Origin: Microcystis aeruginosa NIES-2549
Lineage (GTDB): Bacteria; Cyanobacteriota; Cyanobacteriia; Cyanobacteriales; Microcystaceae
Direction of reading: 5' to 3'
DNA length: 32,000 bases
NCBI RefSeq assembly: GCF_000981785.2
Contig: NZ_CP011304.1
Coordinates: forward strand, 2,910,001 to 2,942,000
Part shown: piece by piece, positions 3,473-28,207 of the stretch
How the letters are laid out: every line of letters starts with the position of its first letter
Position numbering within the stretch: the first letter of the stretch is position 1
Notes under the pieces: generated by a model
What the model saw: the letters and a program-made list of their open reading frames with translations, nothing else
The model's database searches: none
What the model was told of the DNA's origin: nothing
Made by a program: the position numbers and the translations under genes

Positions 3473-4570
3473 TTAAAGACCCCGTTGATAGATAATCTTT
3501 CTGAGACTATCATTAGTTGAATAAGGGCTATCAATGGAGTCAATCATAATGGGTTCATCCTTGTTGCAAGCTCTAGTTAATATTTCTCCTGACATTAACT
3601 CCCGGCAAGAAATCTGTCCTTTCTGGAGGGGAACCGCTAAATATAAATCTTCATTGATGCGGTCATGGTTGAGAATGTAACCTTCTGGCAAATCTCTTTT
3701 AGCATAAACCCCTCGAACCAGCGCATCAAGATACTTAATTTCTCTTTCAGGGGGCATTCTTTTTTGAGTACCAGGCGCGCCACACATTTCTTTAGCTTTT
3801 TGAAAAGCTTTAAACCAAATATCGACCTGTTCGGGTAAGGAACAATAAGGAGAGACAGGGACTCCATCCATCTCAATATCGATATGTCTTTCAAAAGTTC
3901 TCGCCCCCTTAGCGTAGGCTATCAGCATTGAGGATGTCCAATCAGTATATTCATGGGTTGAAAAACCAATGACATGATTGGGGTAGCGATTTTTTAAATA
4001 ATCAATTTGATTCATCTCTAGCTCAGAATCTTCGGAAGGGTAGAGAGAAACACAATGGTTAATAGCCAAAGGAACATTACGATTTTCAAAGAAGATGACT
4101 AAATCATCTATATCCTTGAGGGAAGAACCTCCCGTTGACACAATTACCGGTTTGCGAGTTTCGGCGATTTTCTCAATTAAAAACCAGTCGTTGAGATCTG
4201 AACTAGCGATTTTAATAATGGGGATGCCCAGTTCAACACAAAGATTAACAGACTTTTCATCAAAAGGAGTCGCCATCGGAATACATCCACCTTGACGTAC
4301 TGCTTTCACTAGAGTTGCGTAATCATCTTCTGTCATTTTTGTATCGAGAGTTTTTTTGATATAGCGAATATCAGTCCTGTCCCGAAAATCTCGATGAATG
4401 AAATTGTCCACATCTCTGAATTGAAGCTTGATCGATGCTCTGACATTATTAAACCTAACAATTCTAGAGAAGTCAGTGATGATTTTTAATCCTCTCTCTA
4501 AACTACCCCAATGATTATTAGCAAGTTCTAAAACAAAGAGTTCGTCAAAAATATCGCGGTTAATAGACAT
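3473..4570 (-). CDS. NeuB-family nonulosonic/sialic-acid-type synthase (PEP-dependent aldolase with C-terminal SAF domain)
   Basis: 365 aa. NeuB-like blocks are visible: ELANNHWGS, ATPFDEKS, IKIASSD, VIVSTGGSSL.DID, NHCVSLYP, GFSTHE, FERH, then a SAF-like C-terminal domain. Substrate specificity is not inferable. Confidence 0.85.
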   Translation of the reverse strand: MSINRDIFDELFVLELANNHWGSLERGLKIITDFSRIVRFNNVRASIKLQFRDVDNFIHRDFRDRTDIRYIKKTLDTKMTEDDYATLVKAVRQGGCIPMATPFDEKSVNLCVELGIPIIKIASSDLNDWFLIEKIAETRKPVIVSTGGSSLKDIDDLVIFFENRNVPLAINHCVSLYPSEDSELEMNQIDYLKNRYPNHVIGFSTHEYTDWTSSMLIAYAKGARTFERHIDIEMDGVPVSPYCSLPEQVDIWFKAFQKAKEMCGAPGTQKRMPPEREIKYLDALVRGVYAKRDLPEGYILNHDRINEDLYLAVPLQKGQISCRELMSGEILTRACNKDEPIMIDSIDSPYSTNDSLRKIIYQRGL

Positions 4571-6055: not shown

Positions 6056-7237
6056 TTAGGCTTCGCTGGTAAAGCGAGAATTGGGAATAGCATAAAAAAC
6101 TGACTCTAGACCATTCTCACCATGAGGTATAAGAAAATAAGAGTAATCACTGCATATACTATTTACCAATAAGGGAAGTCTCCATAAATGATCCTGTAGA
6201 TGATAAGTTGAAATAGCCAAGATAGGAGTATATTTCTCGATTATGTTACTTGCTCCCAGAATAGTATCTATTTCTGCACCTTCAATATCCATCTTGATAA
6301 ATGTTGGTGCTTCATCAGCAATAGTTTCATCAAGGGGAACTACATCTACTTCTAAGTTTCCTTGACTGGAAATTGCCGATCCTTCTGAACCAGCCGCTAA
6401 AAATCTCAGTTTTTCTCGTTCTTTACCTGTAGCATTTTGGTAAATTATCACCTTGGCTTGAAGCTGATGATCTAAATTAGAAAGATATGCTTTTAAGTTT
6501 GTTACATTAATTGGATCGGGTTCAAAACAAATTATTTTCTCAATTGAATCTCCCTGAAGATCAATAAATGTCTTCAGGGTATCACCATCAAAAGTGCCAC
6601 AATCTACAAAAACTTCCTTTTTTAAAAGAGGCCTTAAGAAAGTCGGGAAATATTGTATTTCCTGAGACGAAAATAAACCATCAGACTCTAGTAAAATTCG
6701 CCACTTAATCTGCTTCAAATATTCCCGCTTAGATTCTGTATCTTGCCAAAGATCAAAAGCTGCGATAACATCCCCCGTTTGTTCATAAATTTTGTGAGGT
6801 AAATCAAGATAAAAATGAGGCAAAAATTCTTGTGGATGGCACCAAAAAAAGACGGCACACAGGGCAACATTTTGACACCCTAATTGATGTAATTGCTCCT
6901 GAATCAAAGTCAGGCTATTCTCTCGATTAAATACGGTAATAAGGAATAAAGCATTTTGACCATAATTAAGAGCAGCAATTTCAGGGGAAAGAACCTCAAC
7001 TCCCTCAAGTTTTGTATTCCAGATAGCCGCATTATTATCAGCAAAAGCCACTGGTTCTATGCCAATCTTCCGTAAACCTTTAAGACACTTTCTTCCTAAG
7101 TTGCCAGAGCCAAATAAAACAACTTGTCCTTGAGATTTTTCTAACAACCCGCCAAAAACAGAGGTTTCATAATTGATGACGGCATCAATCGGCTTTGCTA
7201 GAAGGTTTTTAAGATCAACTAATAAGTCGGAAGTCAT
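6056..7237 (-). CDS. FkbM family methyltransferase with N-terminal Rossmann-like domain
   Basis: FkbM signature blocks VFVDCGTFDGDT, ICFEPDP and FIKMDIEGAE. N-terminal VVLFGSGNLGRK...VAFADNN...GVEVLSPE module. Confidence 0.8.
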   Translation of the reverse strand: MTSDLLVDLKNLLAKPIDAVINYETSVFGGLLEKSQGQVVLFGSGNLGRKCLKGLRKIGIEPVAFADNNAAIWNTKLEGVEVLSPEIAALNYGQNALFLITVFNRENSLTLIQEQLHQLGCQNVALCAVFFWCHPQEFLPHFYLDLPHKIYEQTGDVIAAFDLWQDTESKREYLKQIKWRILLESDGLFSSQEIQYFPTFLRPLLKKEVFVDCGTFDGDTLKTFIDLQGDSIEKIICFEPDPINVTNLKAYLSNLDHQLQAKVIIYQNATGKEREKLRFLAAGSEGSAISSQGNLEVDVVPLDETIADEAPTFIKMDIEGAEIDTILGASNIIEKYTPILAISTYHLQDHLWRLPLLVNSICSDYSYFLIPHGENGLESVFYAIPNSRFTSEA

Positions 7238-7263: not shown

Positions 7264-8448
7264 TTAAGGTTGGGTAAAGCGAGAATTAGGAATAGCATAA
7301 AAAATGACATCTTGACCATCGTGCAGATGGGGTTCAAGAAAGAAAGAATAATCTTGGCACATACTCTTGATTAATAAGGGAATTCGCCATAAATGATCCT
7401 GTTGGTGATAAACTGAAATTGCCAAAATTGGGGAATGATTCTTGATAATCTCTCTTGCTCCCATAATTGCATCTATTTCCGCCCCCTCAATATCCATTTT
7501 AATAAAGGTTGGTGCTTCATTAGCTAAAACTTCATCAAGAGAAATTGCTTCTATTTCTAAAGTTCCTTGGCTGGAAATTGCAGATGCACCCGAACCTGTT
7601 GCTGAAAATCTTAGCTTTTCTCGTTGCTTGCCTACTGCATTTTGATAAATAATTATTCTATCTCGAATTGTGCTATCTAAATTAGATAGAGAATGCTGGA
7701 GCTTTTCAACATTCTGAGGATCGGGTTCAAAACAAATTACTTTTCCTATAGCACCCGCATTGATAGCCGCTAAAGATTGAACGGTATCCCCATCAAAAGC
7801 ACCACAATCAATAAACACTTCTTGGTTGATTACAGGTAACAAAAAACGAGGGAAATAAGTGATCTCTTTGTAAGCTGACAAGCCGTCAAAATCTAATAAT
7901 ATTCTACATTTTAATTGATTAAGATATTGTTCTTTTGAGTAGTCATCTTGTAGAATCATAAAAGCGGCGATGACATCCTCGGCTTGCTCATAAATTTTGT
8001 GAGGCAAATCGATGAAATAGTAAGGTAAAAAAAACTGATTATATCGCCAGAAAAGAGCGATAAAAGAAGCGACATTGAGAAAACCTATTTTTTGTAATTG
8101 ATTTCTAATTGTGATAAAACTGCGGTTTCTTCCTATGCTCCAAATGGCCACTATAAATAAGACATTATCGCCATATTTTTTCATCACAGTTTCAGGAGAA
8201 AGAACCTCAACCCCTTCAATCTTTGTCCCCCACAAAGCCATATTATTATCAGCAAAAGCCACTGGTTCTATGCCAACACTCCGCAAACCAGCAAGACACT
8301 TTCTGCCTAAGTTGCCAGCCCCAAACAATACAATCTGTCCTTGAGATTTTTCGAGCAATTGCTCGAAAAGAGAACTTTCATAATCTTTTATAGAAGCAAT
8401 TGGTTTTTTGAGTAAATTTTCTAATTCGAGTAATAAAGAAGAAGACAT
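7264..8448 (-). CDS. FkbM family methyltransferase, tandem paralog of 6056-7237
   Basis: Same length (394 vs 393 aa) and collinear with the neighbor: VFIDCGAFDGDT, ICFEPDP, FIKMDIEGAE. Roughly two-thirds identical by eye. Confidence 0.8.
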   Translation of the reverse strand: MSSSLLLELENLLKKPIASIKDYESSLFEQLLEKSQGQIVLFGAGNLGRKCLAGLRSVGIEPVAFADNNMALWGTKIEGVEVLSPETVMKKYGDNVLFIVAIWSIGRNRSFITIRNQLQKIGFLNVASFIALFWRYNQFFLPYYFIDLPHKIYEQAEDVIAAFMILQDDYSKEQYLNQLKCRILLDFDGLSAYKEITYFPRFLLPVINQEVFIDCGAFDGDTVQSLAAINAGAIGKVICFEPDPQNVEKLQHSLSNLDSTIRDRIIIYQNAVGKQREKLRFSATGSGASAISSQGTLEIEAISLDEVLANEAPTFIKMDIEGAEIDAIMGAREIIKNHSPILAISVYHQQDHLWRIPLLIKSMCQDYSFFLEPHLHDGQDVIFYAIPNSRFTQP

Positions 8449-21073: not shown

Positions 21074-21349
21074 AATTTTTGAGTTTTAATAAAAATTTTC
21101 GAGTATATGTTAATGCTTAATTGGCTGGTTAATTGGCTAAAAAAGATACTTTTTACCTTAATTAATTCTGTAATTTTATCAATCTTGCAGAAAAAAATAT
21201 ATAATACCAAGTCTGGTTATTGAAAACTGATTATTTATTCTCCCTTTTGCATAAGTGCCTCTTGCATGAGTGCCTCTTGCCTTAAACCCTAATTAATATT
21301 ATGCCCGATCGCTAATTAAATTAGCAATCGGGCAGTGGTGAGAATTAAT

Positions 21350-21497
21350 GGCTCTCCCAGGTTTGGTGGGTAAAATGTATTCTAAGATACATTGCTCCTA
21401 GCGAGGGGGTGGAACGAACCACAAAGACACAAAGGACACAAAGATCGATCGATCATATTGTAAGTTAAACTCATCACACAGAACCTAGAAGAGCCAA
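21350..21497. repeat. MITE-like repeat, copy 1 (about 148 bp)
   Basis: About 90 percent identical by eye to 22582-22729 in the same orientation. Ends are GGCTCT...AGAGCC. The interior has GGTGGAACGAACCACAAAGACACAAAGGACACAAAGATCGATCGATC. Confidence 0.65.
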
Positions 21498-22581: not shown

Positions 22582-22729
22582 GGCTCTCCCAGCTTTGGTG
22601 GGTAAAATGTATTCTAAGATACATTTCTCAAGAGCGAGGGGGTGGAACGAACCACAAAGACACAAAGGACACAAAGATCGATCGATCCTATGTCAATTAA
22701 ACTTATCACACAGAACCTAGAAGAGCCAA
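22582..22729. repeat. MITE-like repeat, copy 2 (about 148 bp)
   Basis: Direct-orientation copy of 21350-21497, with the same GGCTCT/AGAGCC ends and the same internal motifs. Confidence 0.65.
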
Positions 22730-23123: not shown

Positions 23124-23232
23124 CCCCCCTCCGACATTGGGGTAGGGTTGATTCATGAATCAACCCTACTATTAATCAACCCTACTATTAATCAACCCTA
23201 CTATTAATCAACCCTACCAACATCGGGGGGGT
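23124..23232. repeat. Repeat-rich insertion: outer imperfect inverted repeats, a central palindrome and a 16 bp tandem repeat (3.6 copies)
   Basis: CCCCCCTCCGACATTGGGGTAGGG ... CCCTACCAACATCGGGGGGG are the outer arms. The palindrome is GGGTAGGGTTGATTCATGAATCAACCCTAC. The unit CAACCCTACTATTAAT is repeated at 23161, 23177 and 23193, with a partial copy at 23209. Confidence 0.65.
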
Positions 23233-23316: not shown

Positions 23317-25182
23317 ATGGCAGAAGAAACGGCGAAAATCAAGCTTTATCGGAAAACCTATCAACTTCCCCAACTAAATCGCCCCGATTTATTGGTTTTG
23401 CAGGATCAGATTCAAGAAAGACAGCAACTGATTAAAACTGGAAAACGGGTCCGCAATACATGGTTAGGATTGAGGAAAAAAGAAGAACCCCTCAATTTCG
23501 AGGAAACTTTTCAAGAATTGGAAAGATTAGTCGGGGACTATAACCAGTTAATCGGATTTCTCACCGACCATAAGGATGAATACCGACGGTTTTTCCAGTC
23601 ACTGACCGAGGAAATCAAGGAGGCAGTGGCGGTTAAATGCCAGAAATTGGCAGAAACAGAGCGAAAACGCCAATCTTTGGAGAATAGCATCGGCTCGGCC
23701 GACCTGCGAGATACCCTGAGACTACAGAAACAGCAGATTTTCCGCACCGTGATTCTTGTTGGTCGCGCCAGCTTGCTTATGCTCAAGAAAATCGACTTAA
23801 TCAGCGAAAGTATCCAGAAATTAGCCGAAGATCAGGATACACAAAAACAGGTTTTCTCGAAAATGATCGGCGAGTTGAACGGGTACAAACAAGTGTATCA
23901 GTTGCAGCTGGAGTTAGATAATCTGGAAAAAGAAGCGATCGAAATGGCCAAAGTAGCCATTAATCTAGAACAATACCTAAAACCAATTATCGGGCAGTTT
24001 CAAGGCTTAATCGATCGAGTAGTGACCATTGACGGGGAACTTTCCCGCAGTGTCAGCGAAGTGGAATCCCTCGTCCAGAACATTCTTAGTTCCGAATCGG
24101 CCGTATCTTTCCGCAAAAACGAGAATCTATCGGCTAGTTTGCTCAATTTCCTCGTCACCAGCGAAGAAAAGCGCGGCCGTTTAGCGATCGCATTAGAGCG
24201 AGCCGAGCAGGAAGGATGGCAATGGACAGACGTGGAAATCCCCGACGAGGAAATCGAACTGGAAACCGCCATTCAACGCATCAACAACCATGTAATCGAG
24301 AGAGTTGGGAATTTTACCACCTCCGTCGTCGGTGATTCTCCTATTCCTCCCCCTTCCCAACCAAAGACACCCCTAGACAATAAAACTCCTTCTTCTCCAT
24401 CAGATTGGATGATTCCATCTAAATCTGCTCAACCAGAGACACCCCTAGACAATAAAACTCCATTTACCGAAAACCTACCCAATGGGATAACACTAGAGAT
24501 GGTGAACTTACCAGCAGGTCAATTTCTCATGGGATCTCCTGACAGTGATCCCGATGCTAGGGATTGGGAAAAGCCTCAACACCAAGTTAAAGTCAACAGT
24601 TTTGCGATTGGGAAATATCTGGTGACTCAGGCACAATATGAAGCGGTAATGGGAACCAATCCCTCTTATTTTAAAAACAATCCGCAAAATCCGGTAGAAA
24701 TGGTTACTTGGAACGATGCTCAAGCCTTTTGTCAGAAATTGAGTCAAATAACCGGGAAAACCTATCGCCTCCCCACAGAAGCGGAATGGGAATATGCCTG
24801 TCGTGCGGGGACTACTACTCGCTATTATTTCGGTGATGATGCCAATCAGTTAGGAGATTACGCTTGGTATATCGGAAATCCTCAGCAGACAACTCATCCT
24901 GTGGGCCAGAAAAAGCCCAATGCTTGGGGACTGTATGACATGAGTGGCAATGTTTGGGAGTGGTGCGAAGACGATTGGCACGATAACTATATCGGAGCGC
25001 CAAAGGATGGATCTGCGTGGACTATCAATAATGATAATCGTTCTCATCCCAAGTGTCTGCGCGGCGGTTCTTGGAACATCAACCCTTATGACTGTCGTTC
25101 TGCCGACCGCGGCAGGAGCAACCCCGTCTACGTCAACGACGACGACGGTTTTCGGGTTGCGTGTGTCTCCCCAGGACTTTAA
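23317..25182 (+). CDS. DGR variable (target) protein: N-terminal helical domain of unknown function plus C-terminal formylglycine-generating-enzyme-like (FGE/SUMF1, CLec-fold) domain carrying the VR
   Basis: The C-terminal about 230 aa carry FGE-sulfatase blocks (LPAGQFLMGSP, HQVKV.SFAIGKY.VTQAQYEAVMG.NPS, PVE.VTWNDAQAFC, YRLPTEAEWEYACRAG, NAWGLYDMSGNVWEWCED, LRGGSW, GFRVA). The last 41 codons are the VR. Confidence 0.85.
   Translation: MAEETAKIKLYRKTYQLPQLNRPDLLVLQDQIQERQQLIKTGKRVRNTWLGLRKKEEPLNFEETFQELERLVGDYNQLIGFLTDHKDEYRRFFQSLTEEIKEAVAVKCQKLAETERKRQSLENSIGSADLRDTLRLQKQQIFRTVILVGRASLLMLKKIDLISESIQKLAEDQDTQKQVFSKMIGELNGYKQVYQLQLELDNLEKEAIEMAKVAINLEQYLKPIIGQFQGLIDRVVTIDGELSRSVSEVESLVQNILSSESAVSFRKNENLSASLLNFLVTSEEKRGRLAIALERAEQEGWQWTDVEIPDEEIELETAIQRINNHVIERVGNFTTSVVGDSPIPPPSQPKTPLDNKTPSSPSDWMIPSKSAQPETPLDNKTPFTENLPNGITLEMVNLPAGQFLMGSPDSDPDARDWEKPQHQVKVNSFAIGKYLVTQAQYEAVMGTNPSYFKNNPQNPVEMVTWNDAQAFCQKLSQITGKTYRLPTEAEWEYACRAGTTTRYYFGDDANQLGDYAWYIGNPQQTTHPVGQKKPNAWGLYDMSGNVWEWCEDDWHDNYIGAPKDGSAWTINNDNRSHPKCLRGGSWNINPYDCRSADRGRSNPVYVNDDDGFRVACVSPGL
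25057..25180 (+). repeat. DGR variable repeat (VR)
   Basis: 118 nt (25057-25174) align without gaps to TR 26724-26841. There are 13 mismatches, all at TR adenines. Weaker similarity extends 6 nt further. Confidence 0.9.
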
Positions 25183-25215
25183 CCCTTTGTTCTTTTGCTC
25201 TTTTGCCCTTTGTCT

Positions 25216-25245
25216 CCCGCCCTTAGGCGGGTCGATTTTTTTTTT
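25216..25245 (+). terminator. GC hairpin plus T10 tract downstream of VR (terminator; possibly also the DGR target-recognition hairpin)
   Basis: CCCGCC (25216-25221) pairs with GGCGGG (25226-25231) around the loop CTTA. TCGA and ten T residues (25236-25245) follow. It starts 34 nt after the target-gene stop. Confidence 0.65.
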
Positions 25246-25292
25246 GAGAAAAGAATGTTAAGATTTATTACAGATAAAGAGAGGTAAAGTCG

Positions 25293-25646
25293 TTGAGCGA
25301 ACTATCAATTATCCAGAAGATGTACGATTTAATTAAATGGTATGTCCCAATCCTAACACGAATTCCCAAAACGCACAAATTTACCCTAGGAGAAAGACTG
25401 ATCAATAACTTGTATAGTGTACTAGAGGAACTCATTCTGATTAAATACGAGCGAGAAAAATTAGATAGATTGGTAGCTCTCAACGCTCGACTGGACGTTA
25501 TCCGTTATCAAACCCGACTCCTATGGGATTTTTCTCCGCTTTCTCCAGAAAGATACGAATATGTGAGTAAATTGATAGAAGAAATTGGTCAAGAGCTAGG
25601 TGGCTGGATCAAACAGCAAAAAAATAAACGGACACCAACGAAATGA
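25293..25646 (+). CDS. avd: DGR accessory variability determinant (Avd; four-helix-bundle protein)
   Basis: 117 aa, basic and helical. The typical Avd / 23S-rRNA-IVS-family N-terminus is present ([27 protein letters not shown]). A TTG start lies 8 nt after AAGAGAGG, with ATG 25320 as an alternative. The stop overlaps the RT start (ATGA at 25643-25646). Confidence 0.8.
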
Positions 25647-26701
25647 AGCGATACGGCAACCTCTACACGGATATTATCAACTTCCAAAATCTCACCCTAG
25701 CGGCCAATAAAGCGCAGAAAGGAAAAAGATTTAAAGAGAATGTTTTAGAATTTAATTATAATCGAGAGCGAGAATTAATTATTTTAGAGCAAGAATTACG
25801 AGATAAAACCTACCAGCACGGAAACTATAAGACTTTTTATATTCGAGAGCCAAAAATCCGCATGATCTCGGCTGCACCCTATAGAGATAGAGTCGTTCAT
25901 CACGCCTTATGTAATATAATCAATCCAATTTTCGAGCGGACTTTTATTAATAATTCCTATGCCAATCGAGTGGGATTCGGTACTCATAAAGCTTTAAGAA
26001 AGTTTATTCAATACTCCCGAACTAGCCGCTATGTTTTGCAGTGCGACATCGAGAAATATTTTCCCAGTATCGATCACGAAATTCTTAAAATAATGATCGA
26101 AAAAAAAATCAAATGTCGCGATACCCTCTGGCTAATCGAAAGCATCATCGACAACAGTAACGAACAGATTCCAGTTAACCATTGTTTTGATGATGAGGAT
26201 TTGCTAACCTCTATATCTAGAAGAAAAGGTTTGCCGATGGGAAATTTAACCAGCCAGTTTTTTGCCAATATTTTTCTGAACGGACTAGATCATTTTGTTA
26301 AAGAAAACCTCAAAGTCAACAAATATTTACGCTACGTCGATGATTTTAGCTTATTTTCCGATGATCGAGAGTTTCTCTGCTACGCTCGACAGGAAATCGA
26401 GAAGTATTTAGCTTCAATAAAGCTAAGAATCCATTCCGTTAAGAGTCAACTATTCGAGACAAAAATCGGAGCTACTTTTGTTGGATTTCGAGTATTTCCC
26501 GACCGCGTGAAGGTAAAAAATGATAATCTACATCGAGGAAGAAGAAGAATTAAGCGACTCAAACAAGAGCTGGCAAATGGTACGATCACGCTCGAAGAGA
26601 TGTCTCGTTCTTTACAAAGTTGGTTCGCACATCTTCAACACGGTGATACACGACAGTTAAGAGAAAAGCTATTTGATTCTCTCATCTCGATGAGAAATTA
26701 A
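25643..26701 (+). CDS. DGR-type reverse transcriptase (RNA-directed DNA polymerase)
   Basis: 352 aa with RT motifs 1-7: [49 protein letters not shown] (the GxxxSQ signature typical of DGR RTs) and the catalytic YVDDFSLF. It has no maturase/endonuclease or retron-type extensions. Confidence 0.9.
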
Positions 26702-26723
26702 AGAAGGAGTAGAACAATTTCGA

Positions 26724-26847
26724 CTGCGCGGCGGTTCTTGGAACAACAACCCTAATAACTGTCGTTCTGCCAACCGCAACAGGAACAACCCCGACAACGA
26801 CAACAACAACAACGGTTTTCGGGTTGCGTGTGTCTCCCCAGTACTTT
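26724..26847 (+). ncRNA. DGR template repeat (TR), part of the template RNA
   Basis: Starts 22 nt after the RT stop. By my count it has about 32 adenines in 118 nt, mostly as 13 AAC codons in the VR reading frame. The 3' end GGTTTTCGGGTTGCGTGTGTCTCCCC has no adenine and is identical in the VR. Confidence 0.9.
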
Positions 26848-26967
26848 CCCTCACCAGAGTCGGTGCATGAGAATGTATCGAGCGAGTAAGGAAAAGTCCA
26901 GTTCTATTCCCGCGATGCTGGCGACAGTATCCGAACATTGCCACGAAATCGGTTAGCTTGGTAGGAG

Positions 26968-27001
26968 ATATCCGAACAGTTAACCGATTTCGGATATTTT
27001 T
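26968..27001 (+). terminator. Hairpin plus T tract downstream of TR (candidate end of the DGR transcript)
   Basis: ATATCCGAA (26968-26976) pairs with TTCGGATAT (26989-26997) around a 12 nt loop, followed by TTTT. An alternative pairing is CGAAATCGGTTA (26943-26954) with TAACCGATTTCG (26981-26992). Confidence 0.5.
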
Positions 27002-27101
27002 GGTGTTGAGGTTTCAGTGCCTCTGTCGTCTCTCTTTTGATACTAAATCCGTTGAGTATAGGCTACATATCAGGACAGGCACTCATGCAAGAGGCAAAAG
27101 G

Positions 27102-27218
27102 GGCGTTGCTGATTTGATATCTGAATCTTCTTTTCTGGTATTTTTAAAACCTAGAGCCAAACTAACTTTTGCCCGGGAACCTGCACATTTGGCATTCATA
27201 CCTTGATTCAGCAACGCC
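27102..27218. repeat. MITE-like element or long hairpin (117 bp) bounded by perfect 11 bp inverted repeats
   Basis: GGCGTTGCTGA (27102-27112) and TCAGCAACGCC (27208-27218) are the arms. Immediately upstream is GGCACTCATGCAAGAGGCAAAAGG, the reverse complement of the motif at 21260-21283. Confidence 0.4.
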
Positions 27219-27303
27219 GACACAGCTAGTCTCTCTGCTATAGTACAAAAGTAGTTTAGCATGATACGCTATCTAACCTTATTGCGATCGCGTTGAACTT
27301 TTC

Positions 27304-27594
27304 CTATTCCCCTTGAGTTGCTTGTCTAACCTGTTCGATCTCTAATTCTAAAGCTTGTGCTATCTGTTCAAAGTTCAATCCTAATGCCAATAAACGAGGA
27401 ATAGAGGCTAATTTTGCCGCTAATTCGCCTTCTTGTCGGCCTTCCTCTCTACCTTCCTCTCTACCTTCCTCTCTACCTTCTTCTAAAGCTTCCTGATACA
27501 CTTTAGTTTGTTTTAAATCACTTAAACTAAACATCGCTTCTATCTCCTTTCTACTGACTTGGGGTAACTTATAAACCAAGATTGTCTCTATCAA
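27304..27594 (-). pseudogene. C-terminal remnant of an Rpn/YhgA-like putative transposase (PD-(D/E)XK family)
   Basis: The TTG-initiated 96 aa ORF begins mid-domain: IETILVYKLPQVSRKEIEAMFSLSDLKQTKVYQEALEEGREEG... These are the C-terminal blocks I recognise from cyanobacterial Rpn-family proteins. The N-terminal nuclease domain is absent. Confidence 0.45.
27440..27475. repeat. 12 bp tandem repeat CCTTCCTCTCTA x3 (encodes an EGRE-type repeat on the minus strand)
   Basis: Three perfect units are read directly, plus the partial unit CCTTCTTC. They lie within the Rpn-like remnant. Confidence 0.85.
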
Positions 27595-27694
27595 TTCTAA
27601 AAGTTCTTGCTGTTGTTTGACTTACGGTGGCACACCATAAATCATCCTCTTGCCAAACAATAACTTTAATATTCATCTTTAACTTTTTTTGTCC

Positions 27695-28207
27695 TTATAT
27701 GTCGAAGTAATGATCGATATCAATCGGGAACCATTCCCCATCTAATACCTGTTCGAGGGAGAAAGGAGGCTCTAGAGGAATCGCGTCGCGAGTGACTGCT
27801 TTCGCTTGTATTAAAGTTTTCCGAGCGTTCGAGTAGGCTTTTTGAAAATAATCCCGCGCGTGGTTGGTGAGAGTGGTGGTTTCTAGCCACTCTCCTAGTT
27901 GAGTTCGGAAACTGGCGATTTCTCCTACCCAGTGACAGACGTTGCGTTCTCGCTCCCGTTCCGATTTGTGATAAGCTAACTTAAACAGGTGTTCGATAAG
28001 TCGGGTTAATAAACTTTCTACAGCCCGTCTGTCACTTTTCCCCATGCACTCCACTTCCTCGATCAGATTTTCCCAGTCCACCTCATCAAACTTTTTTAGC
28101 TTTAAAAGTTCGGCGGTTTTTGAAGCCCAGAGAACAAAATCCTGATCGTATAAGGCTTTCATTGATAAAGCTGTTTCTACTGCCATAGTTTCGTTCCAAC
28201 TGCTCAT
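27695..28207 (-). CDS. DUF29 domain-containing protein
   Basis: LYDQDFVLWASKTAELLKLKKFDEVDWENLIEEVECMGKSDRRAVESLLTRLIEHLFKLAY is the characteristic DUF29 N-terminal pattern. The start may be an internal ATG (28186 or 28162). Confidence 0.75.
   Translation of the reverse strand: MSSWNETMAVETALSMKALYDQDFVLWASKTAELLKLKKFDEVDWENLIEEVECMGKSDRRAVESLLTRLIEHLFKLAYHKSERERERNVCHWVGEIASFRTQLGEWLETTTLTNHARDYFQKAYSNARKTLIQAKAVTRDAIPLEPPFSLEQVLDGEWFPIDIDHYFDI

Follow-up and report, generated by a model that had tools for sequence, protein, structure and literature searches.

The question raised by this locus is whether two repeats in the chromosome of Microcystis aeruginosa NIES-2549, one at the 3' end of a protein-coding gene and the other beside a reverse transcriptase (RT) gene, are the variable repeat (VR) and template repeat (TR) of a diversity-generating retroelement (DGR). 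We analysed a stretch of 32,000 nucleotides (assembly GCF_000981785.2, contig NZ_CP011304.1, positions 2,910,001 to 2,942,000 of the forward strand), referred to below as the window, and all coordinates are those of the window unless a contig is named. A first-pass annotation, made from the sequence and its open reading frames (ORFs), had read the two repeats as the VR/TR pair of a DGR. This is borne out by the adenine-only differences between the repeats, the presence of Avd, the relatives and motifs of the RT, and the C-terminal position of the VR in an FGE-type lectin domain. We put at about 95% the probability that this is a chromosomal DGR of M. aeruginosa NIES-2549 with the order target-avd-RT-TR. 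It is a complete and canonical element, real and ordinary, and it was already catalogued in 2020: the RT AKE65309.1, the accession CP011304 and the target AKE65307.1 are listed in Additional file 1 of Vallota-Eastman et al. 2020 (BMC Genomics 21:664, PMC7517822). Remote targets are also given by that work, AKE65350.1 and AKE62606.1 in one table and AKE64189.1 and AKE66167.1 in a further supplementary table.

Differences between the repeats fall on template adenines

Re-alignment of VR 25057-25174 with TR 26724-26841 agreed with the earlier claim of a gap-free match over 118 nt, and gave 13 mismatches. Tabulated by TR base, all 13 fell on adenines and none on C, G or T, as had been reported (TR positions 26746, 26754, 26757, 26772, 26778, 26779, 26785, 26794, 26796, 26800, 26805, 26808 and 26811). 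The substitutions from TR to VR comprised eight A>G and five A>T, with no A>C. Base counting of the TR (32 A, 38 C, 26 G, 22 T) matched the previous estimate of about 32 adenines, and the hypergeometric probability that 13 random mismatches would all land on 32 adenines of 118 nt is 5e-9. On re-translation the two peptide sequences and the codon changes listed in the first-pass annotation were all correct, as was its count of 12 diversified codons in the VR.

The two copies share an adenine-free stretch of 26 nt, GGTTTTCGGGTTGCGTGTGTCTCCCC (VR copy 25147-25172), which occurs exactly twice in the window and in none of 100 shuffles. The earlier description of this stretch was right as to its existence and wrong as to its position: it had been placed before CCCCAG, and as the CCCC is already inside it, what it precedes is AG. 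Homology continues to 25180 in the VR and 26847 in the TR, with G25175 versus T26842 as the sole non-adenine mismatch. A repeat search and a scan with the 26-mer found no further VR or TR copies in the window. The VR makes up the last 40 codons of the target ORF, whose TAA stop codon (25180-25182) lies at the VR 3' end, while the TR begins 23 nt past the RT stop codon and within no listed ORF on the + strand. Most of the TR adenines (28 of 32) sit in 14 AAY codons, and the others include those of two GAC codons and one AGG codon. Because AAY codons cannot mutate to stop codons, the TR could yield about 1.4e18 protein variants free of nonsense codons.

Two direct copies 1667 nt apart with 89% identity (repeat search) could in principle arise as an ordinary duplication, or as a gene-conversion tract between a coding and a non-coding copy, that then diverged by normal point mutation. 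We consider this effectively refuted by the confinement of all 13 differences to one base of one copy, with the probability given above, by the location of the AAC-rich copy outside any gene and beside RT and Avd, and by the recurrence of the same asymmetry in six other genera and in 21 natural VRs, described below.

Avd and the reverse transcriptase

The Avd protein scored 131.7 bits against NCBIfam NF033474 (DivGenRetAVD; 1.1e-38), for which the curated cut-off is 80, and 8e-22 against Pfam bAvd; its closest solved structure is bAvd 4dwl (2.8e-6). The start of the RT gene overlaps the end of avd by 4 nt. For the RT itself the closest solved structure is the Bordetella phage bRT (8ub7_A, 3.1e-48), in an alignment that brings together the IGSLTSQ and catalytic segments, and group II intron RTs appear as solved relatives only at 3.2e-20. 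The RT carries the motif MGNLTSQ, in which Met replaces the Ile/Leu/Val of [I/L/V]GxxxSQ, and the catalytic YVDD (YxDD box). By these sequence features the RT is placed in the DGR clade. On one strand, downstream of the FGE-type target, avd, RT and TR follow each other in this order, an arrangement that corresponds to class B2 of Wu et al. 2018 (NAR 46:11, PMC5758913), who also define a cyanobacteria-only lineage 4.

Could the RT come from another system, such as a group II intron, a retron or a defence-associated RT, with the repeat pair a coincidence? The best NCBIfam RT matches are indeed to models of group II introns, retrons and Drt, each scoring far under its cut-off (for example 140 versus 300 bits). 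Among solved structures, however, the group II RTs trail the DGR bRT by 28 orders of magnitude, the RT start overlaps with an avd gene, Rfam shows no intron or retron RNA family, and a TR/VR pair with adenine-specific differences is present, so that this explanation has a negligible chance of being correct. A prophage origin of the element was also found to be unsupported; the RTs in phage collections were all less than 40% identical and no cyanophage relative was found.

The target is an FGE-type lectin and not a recognizable kinase

The first-pass annotation had proposed mapping the variable codons onto a DGR variable protein of the TvpA (FGE/CLec) class, and the lectin domain of the target does match TvpA of Treponema denticola (2y3c), both by sequence and by predicted fold. 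An FGE-type C-type-lectin domain covers aa 394-615 (Pfam FGE-sulfatase, 1.1e-54). The sequence match to TvpA is 5.7e-31, with LRGGSW...GFR[VL]AC of both VRs in register, and the AlphaFold lectin domain superposes on TvpA with a template modelling (TM) score of 0.73 and a root mean square deviation of 2.9 A, and also on PvdO and FGE structures. The predicted local distance difference test (pLDDT) of the model is 80-95 at aa 380-560 and below 50 for most of aa 196-379; all of the Foldseek matches to the model fall on the lectin domain. From the target sequence, the 17 variable positions (residues 586-588, 590, 591, 596, 598-601 and 603-609) probably lie in the C-terminal ligand-binding region of the lectin fold. 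Their solvent exposure seems likely from the alignment to the TvpA VR and from a published account according to which every solved CLec variable protein has its variable residues exposed (PMC6328139).

The N-terminal 340-380 aa or so of the target are predicted, with low confidence, to be helical (AlphaFold), and are followed by a Pro/Thr-rich linker that leads to the lectin domain and contains a 37-nt direct repeat. The region aa 1-390 presented no significant Pfam domain, even at E<10, where only noise was found. The protein kinase domain PF00069 is absent from the whole target in the Pfam search, and from aa 1-390 at E up to 10. The GenBank product name of AKE65307.1, 'serine/threonine kinase', is therefore unsupported, and where Vallota-Eastman et al. 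2020 (PMC7517822) call the target 'CLec / possible kinase', we could detect no kinase domain. The name was probably transferred from paralogues that combine a kinase with the same lectin-VR module, as PF00069 together with FGE-sulfatase is found in P0095, P0097 and P0101-P0103 and in a gene of contig L039.

Natural diversity of the VR and related loci

When representative genomes were searched with the RT, six relatives with RTs 61-68% identical came to light, in Westiellopsis, Calothrix, Oscillatoria, Pseudanabaenales, Phormidesmis and an uncultured cyanobacterium (L006-L011). No Microcystis representative was among the matches, and close Microcystis relatives were obtained by exact-protein look-ups and a metagenome scan. 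In each of these six loci the TR closely follows the RT, and the templated part differs between the repeats at adenines only. The full target-RT-TR order was seen in the five loci that extend upstream of the VR (L007-L011); the contig of the sixth (L006) starts at the VR.

To look for natural VRs, contigs from metagenomes and metagenome-assembled genomes (MAGs) were scanned with only the flanks fixed and 72 positions left free. Together with the window VR this gave 21 distinct VRs, and one TR copy was also recovered. Differences from the TR fell on 31 adenine positions in 348 of 373 cases (Fisher p = 4e-124); all 31 of these positions were variable and no VR contained a stop codon. Most of the remaining 25 differences (17) were a single G>C site, at which the cognate TR of sister elements has C, so that it reflects TR lineage rather than mutagenesis. 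Five contigs (L039-L043) that encode one and the same RT protein and share one TR sequence have VRs in three versions, which show 15, 14 and 10 differences, so that against their cognate TR 39 of 39 differences are at adenines. At the protein level, 32 distinct C-terminal tails of Microcystis homologues that share this scaffold had a mean entropy of 2.62 bits at the 17 TR-adenine codons versus 0.06 bits at the other 24 positions, with R, W or G at the AGG codon position and D, G or V at the GAC codon position. A TR identical to that of the window was found on lake metagenome contig L022.

The TRs of Microcystis could be sorted into two lineages. At the 26th VR codon the NIES-2549 type reads GAC, and its AG is followed by T; in the type of contig L039 (7082-7205) these places are taken by CAC and C. 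The CAC of the sister TR (at the site of window position 26781) accounts for the frequent His at that position in homologues.

Homologues 85-90% identical to the target (P0021-P0081) were also observed to carry at least two VR scaffolds, ...P.x.xxxxGFRVACVSPGL as in the window, or ...RRDxxxxxGFRVVCGAGRTL / VFGRTL. The target protein family is thus coupled to different TR lineages in different strains.

A conserved RNA structure surrounds the TR

About 150 nt of sequence 3' of the TR are conserved across seven genera, that is, the window and the six related loci. The TR and its flanks from these seven were aligned and folded with RNAalifold, and this gave five helices, named P0 to P4 in Table 1. 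Over all 51 pairs, 96.1% of the alignment cells are paired, versus 30-45% when the partners are slid by 1-3 columns, and compensatory changes are found in 29 of the 51 pairs versus 4-9 in the slid controls. The long-range duplex across the TR (P0, 10 pairs) has four pairs with compensatory changes and 94% of cells paired. Folded alone, the Microcystis TR-flanking RNA gave z = -5.0.

A template:primer duplex, an Avd-binding stem-loop and a 'cPRT Stop' duplex have been seen by cryo-electron microscopy in the ribonucleoprotein of the Bordetella phage DGR (Handa et al., bioRxiv 10.1101/2023.10.23.563531), and such RNA elements with GNRA loops were already reported for cyanobacterial DGRs in the same work. 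All three have covariation-supported counterparts at this locus (P1, P2 and P0, respectively). The RNA anatomy supports the canonical DGR mechanism rather than a new one. Rfam gave no match for the whole window at gathering thresholds, nor for 25000-27700 at E up to 5, which puts the TR-flanking RNA outside the curated RT-associated motifs, including RT-10 of the spacer (Sp) of the Bordetella phage BPP-1 element.

The VR/TR boundary and the directionality of transfer

The first-pass annotation had proposed that G25175 versus T26842 marks the boundary of the repeats, as in the initiation of mutagenic homing sequences of VR and TR (IMH and IMH*). Our analysis supports and sharpens this proposal, as the VR has G and the TR has T or C at this position in all seven genera. 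The conserved VR G occupies different codon positions, being part of GGA in Microcystis and the Pseudanabaenales locus and of AGG or TGG elsewhere, and since it is kept in two reading frames its conservation is at the nucleotide and not the protein level. The discriminating base faces an invariant C of the primer-strand analogue, with which the TR makes a conserved T.C or C.C mismatch and with which the VR would form a G-C pair. In the Calothrix locus (L007), the adenine two bases upstream of the discriminating position, just 5' of the conserved G that lies between them, is substituted in the VR. As this adenine is substituted and the discriminating position is never homogenised, the first copied base is bracketed at the conserved G (26841), which parallels TR G117 of the Bordetella phage element.

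Re-deriving the pairing from the BPP-1 sequence, we found that the VR IMH pairs 10/10 with Sp47-56 and the TR IMH* only 7/10. Naorem et al. 2017 (PMC5703328) had already proposed that directionality is explained by the VR matching this RNA better than the TR does, and for this reason we do not count the idea as new. An improvement by G25175 of the pairing between VR and downstream RNA would fit the published BPP-1 model. The organisation of BPP-1, with (GC)14 plus a 21-bp IMH, is not present at the VR end of this locus.

Between the target stop codon and a GC hairpin lies a polypyrimidine tract. A pyrimidine-rich tract, adenine-free or adenine-poor and with CCCTTTG/CTTTTGC-like repeats, follows the VR in all six related loci as well, and in five of the six it ends in a clear GC hairpin, often of the GCGAAGC type; the end of the tract and hairpin of the Calothrix locus were not resolved by the scan. 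The interval from VR to hairpin is 52-64 nt in these five loci, with 83-89% pyrimidine, and 35 nt in the window. The tract was also found after every Microcystis VR recovered, including those of a second VR class that has no strong GC hairpin (L013, L017 and L018), and it likewise follows remote VRs without a strong hairpin. A search of the DGR papers available to us returned no published description of the tract, which is weak evidence of novelty only. Perhaps target-site choice in the cyanobacterial avd-RT-TR lineage rests on the one-base VR G discriminator plus an adenine-poor polypyrimidine tract of 35-65 nt, a tentative idea that we hold to be less probable than its failure. If true, a single base would serve as a minimal IMH and a new cis element would accompany it; neither feature has been described for phage DGRs.

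The hairpin has six G-C pairs and a 4-nt loop, and its DNA fold has an energy of -8.2 kcal/mol (z = -3.5). Hairpins behind the VR are known target elements of DGRs, and by analogy with phage elements this one is a candidate DGR target-site hairpin or cruciform; its form is also that of an intrinsic terminator. In Microcystis contigs L012-L036 the CCCGCC/GGCGGG stem is perfectly conserved and the loops (25222-25225) were seen as CTTA and TAAG, and as TAGC and GCTA, which are reverse-complement pairs. Such pairs are the signature of loop inversion by template switching in a DNA hairpin, and suggest that the hairpin forms in DNA in vivo.

The avd-RT-TR core is a module

Four contigs from Microcystis MAGs (L012, L024, L025 and L034) carry an orthologous target with a diversified VR, the tract and the hairpin, and do not contain the core 25250-27218. 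After the hairpin they have about 60 nt of other sequence and then resume at window position 27219. Unless these VRs are relics, the core that serves them must lie at another place in the genome.

In contig L039 (3970-7401) a sister element, with an RT more than 90% identical, consists of a lectin-VR-avd-RT-TR block fused to a Pkinase N-terminus, with sulfate-transporter and UDP-glucose dehydrogenase genes as neighbours. The blastn block common to the window and L039-L042 (24457-27042) begins where the Pro/Thr-rich linker ends and the lectin domain starts. The kinase-lectin and helical-lectin targets are a case of domain shuffling at the linker.

Downstream of the TR we also observed a segment of about 80 nt (27043-27124) that is absent from the otherwise collinear L039-L043. 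Window 27040-27104, which overlaps the start of this segment, occurs inverted in L039 at 3787-3850, and an inverted repeat (27102-27126 / 27194-27218) flanks the segment, which looks like a small mobile insertion.

Proposed mechanism and present-day activity

Taking the Bordetella phage DGR as a guide, the element would work as follows. The TR and its flanking RNA would be transcribed and the flanks would fold into the duplex across the TR, the duplex of the TR 3' end with downstream RNA, the GNRA-capped 9-bp stem-loop and the two further hairpins. A complex of RT and Avd would bind the folded RNA, with Avd presumably on P2 as in the phage system. Synthesis of cDNA would be self-primed from the downstream segment and start at or beside G26841, with the RNA-cDNA link predicted in or beside the invariant GUCCA of the primer strand (26895-26900), and the RT would be faithful at C, G and U and insert any nucleotide opposite adenines. 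The adenine-mutagenised cDNA would then replace VR 25057-25174 at the 3' end of the target gene. The direction from TR to VR would most likely be set by the VR-specific sequence 3' of the start site, namely G25175, the tract and the GC hairpin. Present-day activity in NIES-2549 may be expected by the same analogy.

Several observations weigh against an element working in this way. A promoter scan found 9 sites versus 9.8 expected from shuffles, with no convincing promoter for avd-RT-TR, and the hairpin and T run upstream of avd resemble a terminator. The phage DGR hairpin consensus is a stem of 7-10 bp with a 4-nt GRNA loop at 4-34 bp from the VR, and the Microcystis hairpin is just outside it (6 bp, CTTA loop, starting 36 nt past the end of homology). 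A single VR sequence is known for NIES-2549, where the protein cluster has one member, and the nearest proxy for retrohoming is the set of three VR states on an identical RT/TR background, which come from different samples.

The single known VR state would also be expected if the element of NIES-2549 were a relic, its parts intact, its homing lost and the 13 differences frozen from past activity. Consistent with this are the CTTA loop, which differs from the GRNA consensus that is critical in BPP-1, and the many Microcystis genomes that keep the target without an adjacent avd-RT-TR core, so that the core is dispensable or often lost. We nevertheless consider a relic unlikely. The avd and RT frames are full length, with the YVDD and the DGR fingers/palm motif intact, the helices of the TR-flanking RNA are kept by compensatory changes, and the VR shows no non-adenine drift relative to the TR. 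An identical TR is present in a lake metagenome, and the sister element, with its RT more than 90% identical, has three VR states on one RT/TR background.

Features of the locus and of the remaining window

The features of the element are collected in Table 1.

Table 1. Features of the M. aeruginosa NIES-2549 DGR, in window coordinates.
Feature	Position	Strand	Evidence or remarks
Target (variable protein) gene, 621 aa, AKE65307.1	23317..25182	+	ORF; exact protein look-up
37-nt direct repeat, 72-nt spacing (QPKTPLDNKTPSS / QPETPLDNKTPFT)	24353..24461	+	Repeat search, translation
VR, templated part	25057..25174	+	13 substitutions in 12 codons, all at TR adenines
IMH-like VR 3' end	25147..25180	+	Adenine-free 26-mer, A-G, VR-specific G25175, ACTTT
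Polypyrimidine tract, adenine-free, CCCTTTG/CTTTTGC-like repeats	25183..25215	+	29/33 bases C/T
GC hairpin CCCGCC-CTTA-GGCGGG (25216-25231), then ten T (25236-25245)	25216..25245	+	Terminator scan, DNA fold
avd-RT-TR-Sp core, presence/absence module	25250..27218	+	blastn versus L012, L024, L025, L034; junctions
avd, 117 aa, TTG start	25293..25646	+	NCBIfam NF033474, Pfam bAvd
DGR reverse transcriptase, 352 aa, AKE65309.1	25643..26701	+	Pfam RVT_1, motifs
P0, long-range duplex spanning TR	26705-26714 with 26901-26911	+	RNAalifold; 'cPRT Stop' duplex counterpart
TR	26724..26847	+	14 AAY, 2 GAC, 1 AGG codons in VR frame
Structured RNA 3' of TR, BPP-1 spacer (Sp) analogue	26841..26990	+	Seven-genera alignment, RNAalifold
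P1, TR 3' end with downstream RNA (primer-strand analogue)	26841-26849 with 26891-26899	+	RNAalifold
P2, 9-bp stem, GAGA (GNRA) loop, Avd-binding stem-loop analogue	26860-26868 with 26873-26881	+	RNAalifold
P3 hairpin	26914-26920 with 26925-26931	+	RNAalifold
P4 hairpin	26946-26957 with 26979-26990	+	RNAalifold

Other repeats were noted elsewhere in the window. A perfect 16-nt tandem repeat (AATCAACCCTACTATT, 3.8 copies) is found at 23158-23217, 100 nt upstream of the target start codon. An element of about 150-170 nt, with copies 92-98% identical at 21327-21497 and 22582-22729 on either side of the DUF3386 gene, contains CACAAAGA mini-repeats and has another copy at the end of contig L030; it is probably a small dispersed repeat of Microcystis. 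At the start of the window, a 221-nt direct repeat with 89% identity (1-221 and 803-1023) overlaps an ORF of the Uma2 family (putative restriction endonuclease). Tandem paralogous genes for FkbM-type methyltransferases (6056-7237 and 7264-8448, about 75-77% DNA identity) lie inside what looks like a sugar-modification or glycosylation cluster, with NeuB, epimerase, methyltransferases, HAD, TPP enzyme, GtrA and GT2.

Significance and comparison with known systems

As a finding the element is nothing new, given that DGRs are well characterised, that those of cyanobacteria have been surveyed, and that a published table already contains this very element. As a clean textbook case it could serve as a model, with a short TR, its large number of possible variants and abundant natural VR diversity in bloom metagenomes, and M. 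aeruginosa matters for water quality. The one-base discriminator, the tract, the hairpin loops seen in both orientations and the presence or absence of the core are small increments that could guide work on how the cDNA finds its target, a step that is unresolved. The parts of the text and supplements of PMC7517822 available to us contain no description of the TR-flanking RNA structure, the G versus T/C position, the tract, or the presence and absence of the core.

Among the known systems close to this element is BPP-1 (mtd-avd-TR-Sp-brt). Both systems show adenine-specific transfer from TR to VR, with the VR at the C-terminus of a lectin-fold protein, and both have Avd and a homologous RT (33% identity by tblastn). 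They also share a mismatch-bearing RNA duplex of the TR 3' end with downstream sequence, a long-range duplex that spans the TR and a stem-loop directly behind it, as well as VR-specific bases predicted to pair better with the primer strand and a GC hairpin after the VR. Unlike in BPP-1, the order in the window is avd-RT-TR, so that the RNA upstream of the TR comes from the end of the RT gene and not from that of avd, and the element is chromosomal, with purL, DUF29, DUF3386 and an isocitrate/isopropylmalate dehydrogenase-family gene as neighbours. What distinguishes IMH from IMH* is one base plus the flank in the window, as against 5 of 21 positions in BPP-1, and the window element has no (GC)14. 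Its hairpin is shorter, with a loop that is not GRNA, and comes after the polypyrimidine tract; its target has neither a signal peptide nor a phage-tail context.

In its target, the Microcystis element resembles T. denticola, where TvpA likewise ends in its VR, the last strand being invariant. TvpA, however, is a single-domain lipoprotein, whereas the Microcystis target has a helical N-terminal extension and no detectable secretion signal, and the cassette architecture of the Treponema DGR is C in the scheme of Wu et al., as opposed to B2 in Microcystis. The RT-TR order of the six related cyanobacterial loci is also that of B2.

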